A stretch of 21,564 nucleotides of DNA. Source: a bacterium (GTDB lineage: Bacteria; SAR324; NAC60-12). Below are positions 1,598 to 10,298 of the stretch, one piece after another. Below the pieces are notes generated by a model. The model saw nothing but the letters and a program-made list of their open reading frames with translations. It ran no database searches and was not told the DNA's origin. Position 1 is the stretch's first letter, and every line of letters begins with the position of its first letter. Location: assembly GCA_965233585.1 (NCBI GenBank), contig CBDDTI010000108.1:1-21564 (forward strand), read 5' to 3'. The translations under genes and the position numbers were made by a program.

Positions 1598-2293
1598 CAT
1601 AAACAACAATTAAATAATGTTTTCTTAATGATAACCATGGTCATTATATAAATAAAAACTTATGTGACTTATTTAAACGATTGTTATTTTTTCCATGGAT
1701 GTAGCTTAGCGCCTTTTTCTAATACCAGTGATCAATTTGAAACAACCACGGTGGAGATCCGGAAGATGATGGAAGATGTTAGCCCCAAATCCATTGGCTT
1801 ATCAATCCCCATCACAAATGGTACCTTTAGGGATAAACAAATGGTTAGAGAACTAGGTCAATCTTACATGGATACTTTAATCCTTTAGTCTTTTGGTATT
1901 AATGGGATTATCTACTAATTAGCAAAAAAAACTAGTTTTTTGCAGGGTATCTAAGATTGGCAATGAGTATGTATCCCCATTTCTGGGGCAAAAACGTGTT
2001 TTTTAGATACACAAAAAATATCCATGATTCATTAGTAAGATTATGTTTGTTTTGTTTGTTAAATGGTTTTCGAAAAAAACACATGATGTTAGTTATAGTG
2101 GCATAAACTAACTTAGCTAAAACACTGGGCACCACCACTATGGCTATGGTTAAATCTACATGTTTGATGGCTAAATTCTCATTTTTTCATGTTTTGTCCC
2201 GAGAAAGGGCTGTATGTCATGGCAGTTGCTTAATTCAATGTGCCTTTTATCTCGTTCTCGTTGATTAAATCCAAGTTGTCTGGGCGTGTCTGA

Positions 2294-2900
2294 AGATGGG
2301 ATACCTGTGGAGGCACAGGCATTATAGGCACATTCAACCAGAACAATGCTGCAGTACACACAGCCTACACAGACTCTCTGGCGCACAGTGAGAACATCAG
2401 TCTGCGTGACGCCGCAGAATTGCTTCGCGGAGGATGGGGCGGTGATGACGCATTTCATGGGGCCTGGCGCCCAGTCAACCTGGAGCGATTCGTTGAAACA
2501 GTCAAGCAGCGTTGGAACCCGCCCGTGAAGATTGAGTGGCAGAAGATTTCATCAAAGCCGGACAAGAATTGGGCAGGAATCAAGATGTTTGGTTACGAGT
2601 GCCTTCCAAAGACTGCAATTGCGAAGGACTTGGAAGCTGCAGGTATTGCAATTGACGGGCCAGACGCACCGTTGCACGGATGGAAACGCTTGACTGATAA
2701 AGCCTTAATGCGTTCCACTGTCTCGACCTCACGAAGCTGGCAGGGTTACCACGAGGCAAAGCGAGCCGAACTGGAAGCCTTTGTGCACGAACCTGAATAC
2801 TTCCAACTTGTGAGGAGCCAGCTCGAAGAACTTCGGCATCACTGGAGAGGCAAGGGGCCGGCAGCTCGAGAATTTCTGCGCCGCAGACCAGTGCCCGCAA
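2294..2900 (+). pseudogene. Putative endogenous viral element: 5'-truncated RNA-dependent RNA polymerase fragment (Pisuviricota/picorna-supergroup-like)
   Basis: Extending ORF 2420..3001 upstream to the TGA at 2291 gives RWDTCGGTGIIGTFNQNNAAVHTAY...LLRGGWGGDDAFHG...VKQRWNPPVKIEW...IKMFGYECL...KALMRS...ELEAFVHEPEYFQLVRSQL. This holds motif B (TGxxxTxxxN, 2315-2344), motif C (GDD, 2441-2449), D- and E-like segments (MFGY at 2585) and a thumb motif (2774-2803) in canonical order. The segment is visibly GC-richer than its flanks. Motifs F and A are absent. Confidence 0.72.
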
Positions 2901-3048
2901 TAGTAAATCGAAAATCCAAACTCTTCCCCAAGGCTTCTGTAAGGTTTCGACAAATCCTCTCTTTTCTGATAGGCTCTGATGCGATCTTCATTGGATTCTG
3001 ATTGAGAACCTCTGTTTTTTGATAGGCTTGGATGGGATTCTCATTGAC

Positions 3049-4730: not shown

Positions 4731-5005
4731 CAGTCCAGATCCCACTGGCACAGCCGGACCTCCACCGCGAGCTCCAGATCCCAGTGGGCACTGCCGGACC
4801 TCCACCGCGAGCTCCAGATCGCAGTGGGCACTGCCGGACCTCAACCGCGACTTCCAGGTTGCAGTGGGCACTGCCGGACCTCAACCGCGATTTCCAGATC
4901 GCAGTGGGCACTGCCGGACCTCAACCGCGACTTCCAGGTCGCAGTGGGCACTGCCGGACCTCAACCACGAGCTCCAGATCCCAGTGGGCACTGCCGGACC
5001 TCAAC
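4731..5005. repeat. 40-bp GC-rich minisatellite, ~7 copies
   Basis: c(t/a)gccggacc recurs at 4751, 4791, 4831, 4871, 4911, 4951 and 4991. Confidence 0.95.
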
Positions 5006-5007
5006 GG

Positions 5008-5445
5008 CCAGATAGAATGCCAGAAGATATGCCAGATGGAATGTCAGATAGAATGCCAGAAGATATGTCAGATAGAATGCCAGAAGATATGCCAGATAGA
5101 ATGCCAGAAGATATGTCAGATAGAATGCCAGAAGATATGCCAGATAGAATGCCAGAAGATTTGCCAGATAGAATGCCAGAAGATATGCCAGATAGAATGC
5201 CAGAAAAAATGTCAGAAGATATGCCAGATAGAATGTCAGAAGATATGCCAGATAGAATGCCAGAAAGAATGTCAGAAAGAATGTCAGAAGATGTGCCAGA
5301 TAGAATGCCAGAAGATTTGCCAGATAGAATGCCAGAATATATGCCAGAAGATATGCCAGAACATATGCCAGAAGATATGCCAGATAGAATGCCAGATAGA
5401 ATGCCAGAAGATATGTCAGATAGAATGCCAGAAGATTTGCCAGTA
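5008..5445. repeat. 12-bp minisatellite of alternating gatagaatgcca / gaagatatgcca variants
   Basis: Directly visible; it produces the spurious MPED-MPDR and CQIE-CQKI translations. Confidence 0.95.
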
Positions 5446-5491
5446 AGAAAATGTATAAATATCATGGTGGGGATCACACGAAGTAAAGTAA

Positions 5492-6748: not shown

Positions 6749-9063
6749 TGCTAAATTGCGTAATTCCAGGTGGAAACTTTTAAAAAAGGGTTATATTCCT
6801 GGCCAAAGCTTGTTAGTGTGCAATGAAGGCTGAGATAGCAGCTATTGATTCAGCATGCAGTGGAAACATTTATCCGTTTGTATATGGGCAAACCACTGCA
6901 GCTATTGAATCAGCATGTAGTGGAAACATGTGACAACCGATAAGCTACTTAGCTAATTAGCTACTAAAGTGGAAACGAAAAAGTGTTTCACCAAAATATA
7001 ATTCCAAAAAAAGTATATAGTTATAGTTCATTTTTCTTGGAACTATAATTTTGGAATCCTTTTTCAAAAAGTGTTTCACCAAAACATAATTCAAAAAAAA
7101 TATAGTTCCTTTTTTCCGGAACTATAATTTTCGAATCCTTTTTCAAAAGTGCTTCACCACAATATAATTCCAAAAAAAAAATGTCATTTTTTTCGGAACT
7201 GTAATTTTGGAATCCTTTTTCAAAAGTGTTTCACCAAAATATAATTCCAAAAAAAGTATATAGTTATAGTTCATTTTTCTTGGAACTATAATTTTGGAAT
7301 CCTTTTTCCAAAAGTGCTTCACCAAAATATAATTTCAAAAAAAAATATAGTTCCTTTTTTTTTCGGAACTATAATTTTGGAATCCTTTTTCAAAAGTGTT
7401 TCACCAAAATATAATTCCCAAAAAAAATATAGTTCCTTTTTTTCGGAACTATAATTTTGGAATCCTTCTCAAAAAGTGTTTCACCAAAATATAATTCCGA
7501 AAAAAAAATATTGTTCGTTTTTTTTGGAACTATAATTTTGGAATCCTTTTCAAAAGGTGTTTCACCAAAATATAATTCAAAAAATATAGTTCCTTTTTTT
7601 CCGGAACTATAATTTTGGAATCCTTTTTCAAAAGTGTTTCACCAAAAGATAATTCCAAAAAAATATAGTTCCTTTTTTTTCGGAACTATAATTTTGGAAT
7701 CCTTTTTCAAAAGTGTTTCACCAAAAGATAATTCCAAAAAAATATTGTTCCTTTTTTTTCGGAACTATAATTTTCGAATCCTTTTTCAAAAGTGTTCCAC
7801 CAAAATATAATTCAGAAAAACAATATAGTTCCTTTTTTTTCGGAACTATAATTTTCAATGCTTTTTTCCAGACATGTTGCTAATACATTGTCACCGTTTT
7901 GGGCCCAATTTTGCTGGAAAAAACATTGTTTTGTATTAGTGCGTAAGCACCTTGCTAATACTAAACAAGGTTTTTTTTCAGCAAAATTGGTTCCAAAACG
8001 GTGACAATGTATTAGCAACATTTCTGGAAAAAAGCTTTATAAATTATAGTTCCCAAAAAAATGGAACTATATTTTTTTTTGGAATTATACTTCGGTGAAC
8101 ACTTTTGAAAAAATAATTTCAAAATTAGTTCCGAAAAAAAAAGGAACTATATTTTTTGTTGGAATTATATTTGGGTGAAACACTTTCGAAGAAGGATTCC
8201 AAGATTATAGTTCCGAAAAAAAAGGAACTATATTTTTTTTGGAATTATATTTTGGTGAAACACTTTTTGAAAAAGGATTCGAAAATTATAGTTCCGAAAA
8301 AAAAGGAACTATATTTTTTTTTGGAATTATATTTTGGTGAAACACCTTTTGAAAAAGGATTCCAAAATGATTGTTCCGAAAAAAAAGGAACTATATTTTT
8401 TTTGGAATTATATTTTGGTGAAACATTTTTGAAAACGGATTCCAAAACTATAGTTCCGAAAAAAAAGGAACTATATTTTTTGAATTATATTTTGGTGAAA
8501 CACCTTTTGAAAAAGGATTCGAAAATTATAGTTCCGAAAAAAAAGGAACAATATTTTTTTGGAATTATCTTTTGGTGAAACACTTTTGAAAAAGGATTCC
8601 AAAATTATAGTTCCGAAAAAAAAGGAACTTTTTTTTTTTGAATTATATTTTGGTGAAACACTTTTGAAAAAGGATTCCAAAATTATAGTTCCGAAAACAA
8701 GGAACTTTTTTTTTTTGGAATTATATTTTGGTGAAACACATTTGAAGATGGATTCCAAAATTATATTTCCAAAATAAAGGAACTATATTGTTTTTTGGAA
8801 TTATATTTTGGTGAAACACTTTTGAAAAAGGATTCCACAATTATAGTTCCGAAAAAAAATGATTTTTTTTTTTGAATTATCTTTTGGCGAAAAACTCTTT
8901 CGTTTTCACTTTAGTAGCTAATTAGCTAAGTAGCTTATCGGTTGTCTTCCGTTTGTGTTTAAGTCGTTTTAAGTGTTTTAAAACTTATGACAGGTACCTG
9001 CAGATATATAACGCTTTTTTGTTTTTTCTTTCCTATAGAGGCTAGGGTTTATGAAATTTAGCA
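6749..9063. mobile_element. 2315-bp non-autonomous TIR element with 8-bp target-site duplication
   Basis: TSD ttgccaac at 6741-6748 and 9064-9071. Termini tgctaaattgcgtaa ... ttatgaaatttagca (9-bp perfect, 13/15 inverted match). Removing it restores the host reading ttgccaactgtgaaaattg. Confidence 0.85.
6932..8946. repeat. ~2-kb foldback palindrome: two ~1-kb inverted arms, each with ~11 copies of an ~80-bp unit, and a 15-nt loop
   Basis: Left arm starts gacaaccgataagctacttagctaattagctactaaagtg and the right arm ends with its reverse complement. Units read gtgtttcaccaaaatataattcc on the left and ggaattatattttggtgaaacac on the right. Arms pair up to 7939/7955; loop 7940-7954. Confidence 0.95.
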
Positions 9064-9606
9064 TTGCCAACTGTGAAAATTGCCGGAAGTCTCGTACGAA
9101 ATGCTGGTTTTTCTGCATCCACGTGTCTTATCTCGAGTCGCTGGTTTTCCTGTGGCGTCGCCGTATCTATGGGGGAAGCTGGACAACCTCTCCTATTCGA
9201 ATGTGTCCACACAGGTTGTCATGTCGTTTTGCGTGGCAGGCGTGGCACTTTGTGACATTCCAACCTGTTTGATAATGTGTCGAAAATGTCAAAATTTGAG
9301 GAAGTCTCGTACGAAATGCTTGTTTTTCTGCATTCACGTGTCTTGGCTCGAGTCGCTGGTTTTCCTGTGGCGTCGCCGTGTCTATGGGGGAAGCTGCAAA
9401 ACATATCTTTTTTGAAGGTTTCCAAGCAGGTTGTCATGTTGTCTTGCGTGGCACGTGTGGCACTTCGTGACATTCCAACCTGTTTGATAACGTGTCGAAA
9501 ATATCAAAATTGGAGGAAGTCTCGCACGAAATGCTCGTTTTTTTGCACCCACGTGTCTCGTCTCGTGTGTCTGGTTTTCCTGTGGCGTCGCCAAGTCTAT
9601 GGGGGA

Positions 9607-10298
9607 ACACTCCACACTCCCCACTTTACACTCCACACTCCACACTTTACACTTTCCACTCCACACTCCGCACTCCACACTCCACACTTTACTGTACACT
9701 CCACACTCCACACTTTATACTTTACACTCCTCACTCCACACTCCGCACTTTACACTCCTCCCTTTTCACTCCACACTCCACACTCTACACACCACACTAC
9801 ACTTTCCACTCCAGACTCCACACTCTACACTTTACGCTCCACACTCCACACTTTACACTCCACACTTTACACTCCACACTCCACACTTTACACTCCTCAG
9901 TCCACACTTTACACTCCTCACTCCACACTCTACACTTTACACTCCACACTCCACCTTTTTACACTCCACACTTTACACTCTACACTTTACACTCTACACT
10001 TCACACTCTACAATTTACAAACTCCACGCTCCTCACTCCACACTTTACACTCCTCACTTTACACCCCACACTCCACACTTTGCACTTTACACTCCTCACC
10101 CCACACTCTAGACCCTACACTCCACACTCCACACTCTACACTCCACACTCTACACTTTACACTCCATACTCCACACTCTACACTTTACACTCCGCATTCT
10201 ACACTTTACACACTCTACACTCCCCACTCCACACTTTACACTCCACACTCCTTACTTCACACTCCACACTCCACACTCTACACTTTCCACTCCACACT
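9607..10298. repeat. 7-bp minisatellite (cactcca / cacttta / cactcta)n
   Basis: Directly visible, almost G-free on the + strand. It produces spurious His/Thr/Leu-rich ORFs. Confidence 0.95.

Follow-up and report, generated by a model that had tools for sequence, protein, structure and literature searches.

Endogenous viral elements (EVEs) derived from RNA viruses are known from the genomes of Symbiodiniaceae. The dinoRNAV (HcRNAV-like) EVEs come from small viruses with two open reading frames (ORFs), which encode an RNA-dependent RNA polymerase (RdRp) replicase and a major capsid protein but no helicase (PMC9651163). The Hypofuvirales (Hypoviridae, Parahypoviridae, and Fusariviridae) are defined, in a preprint (bioRxiv 10.64898/2026.08.03.742603), by the RdRP-S2H tandem, in which the RdRp is followed by a superfamily 2 (SF2) helicase, and the same layout is given in the abstract of the Fusariviridae profile of the International Committee on Taxonomy of Viruses (ICTV). 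According to this 2026 preprint, EVEs related to the Hypofuvirales occur in dinoflagellate genomes. Here, we describe a fragment found in contig CBDDTI010000108.1 of assembly GCA_965233585.1; the whole contig, 21,564 bp in length, is referred to below as the window. With good confidence, we regard positions 2309–2896 of the window as an EVE that derives from a hypovirus-like RdRp gene and lies in nuclear DNA, most likely of a dinoflagellate. What is notable in this case is a divergence that goes beyond the standard profiles and the existence of an intact, genome-length relative in DNA.

The fragment and its family

In viral palm-domain RdRps of the Pisuviricota type, the catalytic motifs follow one another as A (DxxxxD), B ([ST]GxxxTxxxN), and then C (GDD). 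The features of the locus on which the comparison is based are as follows:

2294–3001, + strand: the complete frame from stop to stop (235 codons), in which the first 5 and the last 35 codons are not virus-derived
2291–2293, + strand: TGA, located in the host flank and not a break in the viral sequence; the same stop is present in L003, a second assembly of the locus
2309–2896, + strand: the putative virus-derived fragment, the C-terminal part of an RdRp with motif B, motif C, the rest of the palm, and a helical thumb
2315–2344, + strand: motif-B-like TGIIGTFNQN, aligned with GGMTGSGTVYGLN of the related proteins P0009, P0010, and P0017; GG.TG is invariant in the four-sequence alignment A4
2441–2449, + strand: motif-C-like GDD, kept in eight of the nine family rows spanning it and located at a beta-hairpin turn in the P0009 model
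2897–3048, no strand: a high-copy repeat segment (depth 500–3000, loose ends at 2897) that replaces the native 3′ continuation of the fragment

The initial annotation had pointed to an uninterrupted frame with a set of RdRp-like motifs, and all of the strings quoted in it are present. The stop-to-stop frame, closed on its 5′ side by the TGA, reads GGTGIIGTFNQNN, with GG in front of the motif-B-like sequence; the GDD belongs to WGGDDA and lies 42 residues past the motif-B T. The frame also contains WNPPVKIE, IKMFGY, and ELEAFVHEPEYFQLVRSQL. As had been noted for the ORF track, gene callers begin at TTG 2420, and motif B is therefore absent from the 193-aa database protein P0003. Of the 5737 open frames in the 12-Mb assembly that comprise 150 codons or more, only the window frame has the pattern [ST]GxxxTxxxN with GDD 20–50 residues on; therefore, we accept the observation as real and as more than a frequent coincidence. 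The frame is conserved in further assemblies, and a word-indexed search revealed six homologues.

The fragment is truncated at both ends. Homology to the family begins at 2309 (GGTGII) and stops at 2896, which corresponds to residues 2317–2512 of P0009; in tblastn comparisons, the identity is 44% over 196 aa with P0009 and 64% over 206 aa with P0004. In no frame upstream of the fragment were motifs A and F or the conserved segment preceding motif B found. When the N-terminal parts of six family members were compared by tblastn with positions 1–2420 of the window at E values up to 50, only GGTGIIGTFN at 2309–2338 was returned below E 0.03. For this reason, the earlier proposal that the insert extends to approximately 2234 and that the TGA is a mutated TGG is not supported: positions 2234–2290 are unlike the pre-motif-B segment of the family, and the insert starts at about 2309. 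Motifs F and A are missing because the fragment starts at motif B, and no other part of the P0009 polyprotein was found in this assembly. From 2897 onward, the tail of the frame matches the repeat-derived protein P0008. The composition also changes at the edges of the fragment, with a GC content of 54.6% inside versus 33–36% in the flanks. Having no motif F, no motif A, no start codon, and no native 3′ end, the fragment cannot polymerize RNA; it is almost certainly no longer a working enzyme.

The same locus is present in L003, a 48-kb metagenome contig, to which positions 1598–2895 of the window align at 97.8% identity, the flank and the TGA included. L003 keeps the native tail RRRPVPSREHLLRRFYLSKGK..., as do P0007, P0009, and P0010, where the window has the repeat. 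Within the frame, 4 of 602 positions differ between the two assemblies (two synonymous and two non-synonymous differences, no indels), as against 24 of 696 alignment columns in the flank. This contrast hints at constraint, with numbers too small for a claim.

The fragment belongs to a small family of unnamed proteins. An exhaustive HMMER search among 1.84 billion representatives, seeded with P0004 (the longest of the six homologues), found 19 proteins at E ≤ 1e-3, none of them named. P0009 has a length of 3774 aa, with the window-homologous part at residues 2301–2525, and P0010 has a length of 613 aa. The 3774-codon frame is uninterrupted in both P0009 and P0024, which are encoded by DNA contigs of 103 kb and 26 kb and differ at 7 of 3774 residues; P0009/P0024 is a genome-length hypovirus-like element in DNA. 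No Pfam domain was found in the N-terminal ~2100 residues of P0009, where many hydrophobic stretches can be seen by eye. Members of the family cluster lie on contigs of 0.19–1.2 Mb.

Upstream of the window-homologous part, P0009, P0010, P0015, P0006, P0019, and the locus L005 carry a motif-F-like K-x-E...K-x-R. In the same six sequences, it is accompanied by a motif-A-like K-L-D-x4-D with L-V/P-P-E-L, then by GG-x-TG...N (motif B) and GDD (motif C), i.e., motifs F, A, B, and C stand in canonical order in the family; the window copy holds B and C only. In alignment A4 (the P0009 stretch, P0015, P0006, and P0019), both aspartates of motif A are invariant, as is GG.TG. The exception at motif C is P0004, with GDG.

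Two subgroups, 38–44% identical to each other, can be distinguished in the family. Members of the window-type subgroup (P0004, P0006, P0007, and P0016) are 61–71% identical to the window sequence, and those of the P0009-type subgroup (P0010 and the loci L004 and L005) are 59–68% identical to P0009. P0004, P0006, P0007, P0015, P0016, and P0019 are the GGGTGIIGTFNQ/WGGDD kin of the window. WGGDD had been taken as a sign of a divergent lineage; the lineage is indeed very divergent, whereas WGGDD is not lineage-wide, since relatives show F/Y-DGDD. Word-indexed searches found no longer relative of the window frame among 3640 candidates and, among 3930 candidates, no full-length relative of P0009 besides P0009 itself. 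None of the 159 pattern matches in the contigs of GTDB genomes was confirmed, and scans of IMG/VR revealed no exogenous RNA-virus relative of the family. An IMG/VR sequence considered as a relative, L002, was rejected: it is a carbamoyltransferase-like ORF sharing only a glycine-rich pattern.

Three sister copies, L004, L005, and L006, come from the same metagenome as L003. L004 starts at the GDD, remains open for 1017 codons through the helicase, and is 60% identical to residues 2355–3371 of P0009. In L005, a frameshift between motifs A and B separates the frame of motif A from that of motifs B and C, and L006 is a short piece. A frameshift was also found in P0005, which represents the window locus in another assembly. 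The different truncation points, together with identities of 37–66% and mostly open frames, suggest repeated capture of diverged viruses rather than one duplicated, decaying insert.

Probable polymerase ancestry and helicase context

The relatives place the RdRp-like part of the family next to a helicase. An SF2 helicase is located downstream of the RdRp-like part in P0009 (DEAD at residues 2858–2911, RdRp-like part at ~2190–2530); the Pfam DEAD model scores 26.8 bits with P0009 and 26.1 bits with L004 at a cut-off of 26. HrpA-type DEAH helicases in the PDB match at E 9e-4, and L004, with a HrpA-like match, is one open frame from the GDD through DEAD. The RdRP-S2H tandem in one polyprotein is, therefore, a property of the relatives P0009 and L004; the window fragment stops before the helicase. 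In the 3774 aa of P0009, Pfam finds DEAD only and no capsid domain, and most of the protein has no assignable domain.

Direct tests of the window sequence itself were negative. A Pfam search with the window frame, with and without the TGA read through as X, gave no family at E ≤ 10, and a PDB sequence search gave only noise. The AlphaFold2 model of the fragment is unusable, with a mean predicted local distance difference test (pLDDT) score of 39.4, and a palm-fold match was not obtained either. At that stage, the initial annotation would have failed on the two points it had itself named as speaking against its reading, the lack of a profile match and the lack of a structural match. The family does little better in the same kinds of search. 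PDB searches with single family sequences and with profiles A3 and A4 returned no RdRp, and the only matches in the PDB sequence and profile searches were noise (2-oxoglutarate dehydrogenase and serine acetyltransferase, E 0.2–2); the AlphaFold model of the P0009 stretch is poor, like that of the fragment, and neither Foldseek against the PDB nor the VIA wide search with it gave anything over noise. The ESM Atlas gave no usable match for P0004, whose own model there has a pLDDT of 0.27. RdRP_1 matched nothing in the whole assembly at E ≤ 10, and the best of the 19 members for this model, P0015, reached 11.6 bits, which is below the cut-off of 23.9.

Since the direct tests of the window sequence were negative, the RdRp reading rests on its relatives and on converging weak lines. 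The match of RdRP_1 to P0015 covers residues 169–247, the block from motif A to motif B, at profile positions 229–305 of 450. Its E value is 0.12 over 24,736 models, i.e., by our own arithmetic, ~5e-6 per model or ~1e-3 when about ten RdRp models and 19 members are allowed for. In the ESM Atlas feature search with residues 1–300 of P0010, the best 10 of 30 matches were all viral RdRp clusters with scores of 0.93–0.94, on a scale where 0.9 is reached by 4–10% of shuffled proteins. In a Foldseek search of the BFVD with the model of the P0009 stretch, the polyprotein of Beihai hypo-like virus 1 came out on top at E 5e-3, followed directly by Trichoderma harzianum hypovirus 1; Cryphonectria hypovirus 4 was at rank 7, and ranks 5 and 9 were taken by RdRp fragments of calicivirus and picornavirus origin. 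Among the 50 matches listed for the window's own poor model, six were to hypoviruses or fusariviruses and two to astrovirus replicase, none of them significant. In the predicted structure of the P0009 stretch, a loop and a long helix at motif B (pLDDT 72–90) are followed by a hairpin turn with GDD, a helix, a hairpin, and a helical C-terminal domain; this predicted order fits a palm and a thumb. Single tests are not significant; several independent weak lines converge, and we consider the RdRp ancestry of the family highly probable. The claim of an RdRp-type origin from motif B onward has, in this way, gained backing from the motifs of the relatives, the RdRP_1 register, and the language-model and BFVD matches, each weak when taken alone. 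The case also indicates that motif reading is able to detect an RdRp that Pfam, PDB, and Foldseek searches overlook.

From the domain order and the weak fold matches, we infer a Hypofuvirales-like affinity. As in the Hypofuvirales, the SF2 helicase of the family stands behind the RdRp within a single large polyprotein; a capsid domain was not detected. The helicase of the family is nearest to the HrpA/HrpB-type DEAH enzymes, which the preprint (10.64898/2026.08.03.742603) reports for the order. The nearest named match is Beihai hypo-like virus 1, and three of the top seven BFVD ranks are hypoviruses or hypo-like viruses. Unlike the Hypofuvirales, the family has no significant match to RdRp profiles, is encoded in DNA, and most likely has a dinoflagellate rather than a fungal host, and the window copy comprises only motif B to the thumb. 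The Stelpaviricetes/Hypofuvirales-related EVEs of dinoflagellates described in the preprint (10.64898/2026.08.03.742603) resemble the present fragment both in their nature and in the type of host. However, they were found by RdRp profiles and by BLASTP at E < 0.05 to known viruses, whereas for the present family no exogenous relative could be detected in the collections that we searched.

The dinoRNAV EVEs are also non-retroviral RdRp fragments in repeat-rich Symbiodiniaceae DNA; RdRp-like inserts with ~54% GC, LINE-like (long interspersed nuclear element) reverse transcriptases some kilobases away, and relic spliced leaders nearby are described in PMC10235124 and PMC9651163. In the present family, by contrast, the RdRp precedes a helicase within a frame of 3774 aa, a gene for a capsid protein was not seen, and the fold matches are hypovirus-like. 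Because of this helicase context, a dinoRNAV-type origin does not fit, and the element is, by its layout, not dinoRNAV-like.

Integration, host and rival explanations

The fragment is integrated in its flanking DNA. The stretch was found in 20 runs from 13 studies, and six of these runs are coral metatranscriptomes. The 5′ edge is bridged by contigs of four runs from three studies, namely X1 (1940–2926), X2 (1940–2931), X16 (2099–2678), and X15 (2134–2331); at the 3′ edge, X2 and X15 provide bridging contigs (2580–2948). Contigs of independent runs thus span both edges, whereas a lack of reads across the junctions had been named as a sign of a chimeric assembly. In X1 and X2, the fragment is present at single-copy depth, and the neighboring repeats are hundreds to thousands of times deeper. 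Three neighboring features are relevant here:

1850–1966, no strand: an interspersed repeat with a very high copy number, located 340 bp before the fragment; also in L006
3049–4629, no strand: a 268-bp tandem array, 5.9 copies, abutting the locus; about two units are at the same place in L003
16355–21205, − strand: a non-LTR (long terminal repeat)-retrotransposon-like element, 13 kb away from the fragment, with two consecutive long frames (1289 aa and 323 aa)

The fragment had been described as an integrated RNA-virus sequence that arose by reverse transcription. The integration stands, with both junctions bridged and the flanks shared by L003, whereas the route of reverse transcription is an inference. 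It can be no more than that because neither a poly(A) tract nor a target-site duplication was seen at the insert and the retroelement is unlinked. The frames of the retrotransposon-like element match RVT_1 weakly (E 0.0024, 18 bits, below the cut-off of 29.6), which suggests a very divergent reverse transcriptase. Although this element could have supplied reverse transcriptase, no link between it and the fragment was seen.

The source would have been a capsidless hypovirus-like positive-strand RNA virus with an RdRp-then-SF2-helicase polyprotein. The 3′ part of its RdRp gene would have been copied to DNA, presumably through reverse transcription by a host retroelement, and embedded in the repeat-rich nuclear DNA of a coral-associated dinoflagellate. 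The copy is cut at both ends, and a host repeat takes the place of the native 3′ continuation. It would now be a genomic fossil, serving at most as a source of non-coding or antisense RNA or of a read-through transcript that feeds small-RNA pathways.

The host can be judged from the shared repeats and from L006. At 2233–2253 on the − strand, L006 has a full 21-nt motif with no mismatches, which we take to be the dinoflagellate spliced leader; in 18 kb, its 15-nt core would be met by chance only ~3e-5 times. Two interspersed repeat families are common to L006 and the window. No spliced-leader relic was found in the window itself, where the best match has 2 mismatches in 15. Taken together, the shared repeats, the spliced leader of L006, and the coral metatranscriptomes among the runs make a dinoflagellate the most likely host, and this host is probably a coral symbiont. 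In L006, an apparent partial second copy of the spliced leader can be noted ~20 bp after the first, which would be typical of recycled retroposed mRNAs. No splice joints were found within the fragment in the RNA-library contigs, and since these contigs span the fragment and the non-coding flank alike, transcription is not established. An Rfam search of the window gave no family.

Several other explanations of the locus were weighed. The RdRp–helicase family might not derive from an RNA virus at all: it could be a dinoflagellate gene, a DNA-borne mobile element, or a DNA virus, with a pseudogene fragment in the window. All of the members seen are encoded by DNA contigs, P0009 and P0024 retain the unbroken 3774-codon frame, and no exogenous RNA-virus relative was found in the IMG/VR scans, as such an origin would have it. 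However, to our knowledge, a palm RdRp fused to an SF2 helicase in a polyprotein of several thousand residues with transmembrane-rich N-terminal parts is a property of RNA viruses only. The tandem is also the hallmark of the Hypofuvirales in the preprint (10.64898/2026.08.03.742603), and the nearest matches in the fold library are hypovirus polyproteins. Moreover, the copies are scattered, differently truncated, 37–66% identical, and mostly open, as separate captures would give, and the GC content of the fragment is 20 points over that of its flanks; we consider a non-viral origin unlikely. That the likeness of the motifs arose by chance and the family is a non-polymerase domain of another kind seems quite unlikely to us. 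The poor models and the lack of any significant profile or fold match to an RdRp would agree with chance, which, however, is difficult to reconcile with the agreement of four independent methods (motifs F-A-B-C, RdRP_1, language model, and BFVD) on a family named beforehand, with conservation concentrated on catalytic residues, and with the helicase context.

The fragment could also have been co-opted as an expressed host exon or gene under selection, for example, as an RNA-binding thumb domain or an antiviral small-RNA template. The 235 open codons and the low divergence of the frame from L003 (4/602 without an indel, against 24/696 in the flank) are in line with this, and contigs from two RNA libraries cover the fragment. 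These contigs, however, run on colinearly into the non-coding flank, splice joints within the fragment are lacking in them, and such libraries may contain DNA. Furthermore, there is no ATG start, TTG 2420 being the sole in-frame start-like codon used by gene callers; two of the four differences from L003 are non-synonymous; P0005 carries a frameshift in this locus in another assembly; and the 3′ end, which is undisturbed in L003, is broken by a repeat in the window. Co-option is, in our view, very improbable. Since the contig has ended up in the wrong, bacterial bin, one might suspect that the assembly is chimeric or that an exogenous RNA virus contaminated it, but independent runs of different studies bridge both junctions, and the same locus occurs with its flanks in a separate metagenome assembly and in scaffolds up to 0.95 Mb, which leaves hardly any room for an artifact. 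An EVE from a hypovirus-like RdRp gene is the explanation that we prefer.

Surrounding DNA and implications

The interspersed repeat at 1850–1966 reaches a word depth of up to ~73,000 in run X1, versus ~14 for the fragment. It is ~115 bp in length, with roughly 5000 times the single-copy word depth in X1 and X2. Positions 1852/1853 and 1966 are end points of many contigs, which suggests an element similar to a short interspersed nuclear element (SINE) or a miniature inverted-repeat transposable element (MITE). Tandem repeats are found in other parts of the window as well. A 170-bp array at 847–1540, with 4.1 copies that are 97% alike, is missing from L003, which is otherwise colinear with the window. 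Arrays of 40 bp and 24 bp at 4734–5449 yield a repeat-made frame of 333 codons (PEDMPDRM...), which is unlikely to be a gene. Two arrays with 79/80-bp units, ~10.7 copies each and ~26% GC, are located at 7022–7866 and 8041–8896; their consensus units look reverse-complementary and would, therefore, make a large inverted array pair. A 215-bp unit (2.5 copies) at 9076–9607 stands just before the 7-bp repeat ACACTCC at 9607–10298, which has ~99 copies with a 71% match and a strong negative GC skew.

The contig has been wrongly binned into a bacterial metagenome-assembled genome (MAG), and most of this assembly is DNA of non-prokaryotic appearance. The cover by long ORFs is below 0.4 in 643 of the 747 contigs (6.9 of 12.0 Mb) and at least 0.6 in 42 contigs (3.9 Mb, including the 1.07-Mb contig C747). 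Only 12 contigs carry the interspersed repeats of the window; the assembly may, therefore, contain DNA from more than a single eukaryote. In this way, the case flags a MAG that is listed as bacterial in a reference collection but consists mostly of eukaryotic contigs.

A broader and tentative suggestion, about which we are rather doubtful, concerns the lineage as a whole. The window sequence and its WGGDD kin may represent an undescribed family-level lineage of capsidless hypovirus-like viruses of Symbiodiniaceae, with no known exogenous member and distinct from the P0009 subgroup, and the P0009 copy may be a domesticated gene or an endogenous replicon that is still expressed in coral symbionts.

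There are few ways to learn which viruses infect coral symbionts, and one of them is offered by the RNA-virus fossils of Symbiodiniaceae genomes. Hypovirus-like viruses have so far been treated as fungal, and RdRp–helicase relics in DNA that is probably of dinoflagellate origin back the recent proposal of protist hosts. The family described here gives concrete sequences with which living relatives can be sought in coral metatranscriptomes.

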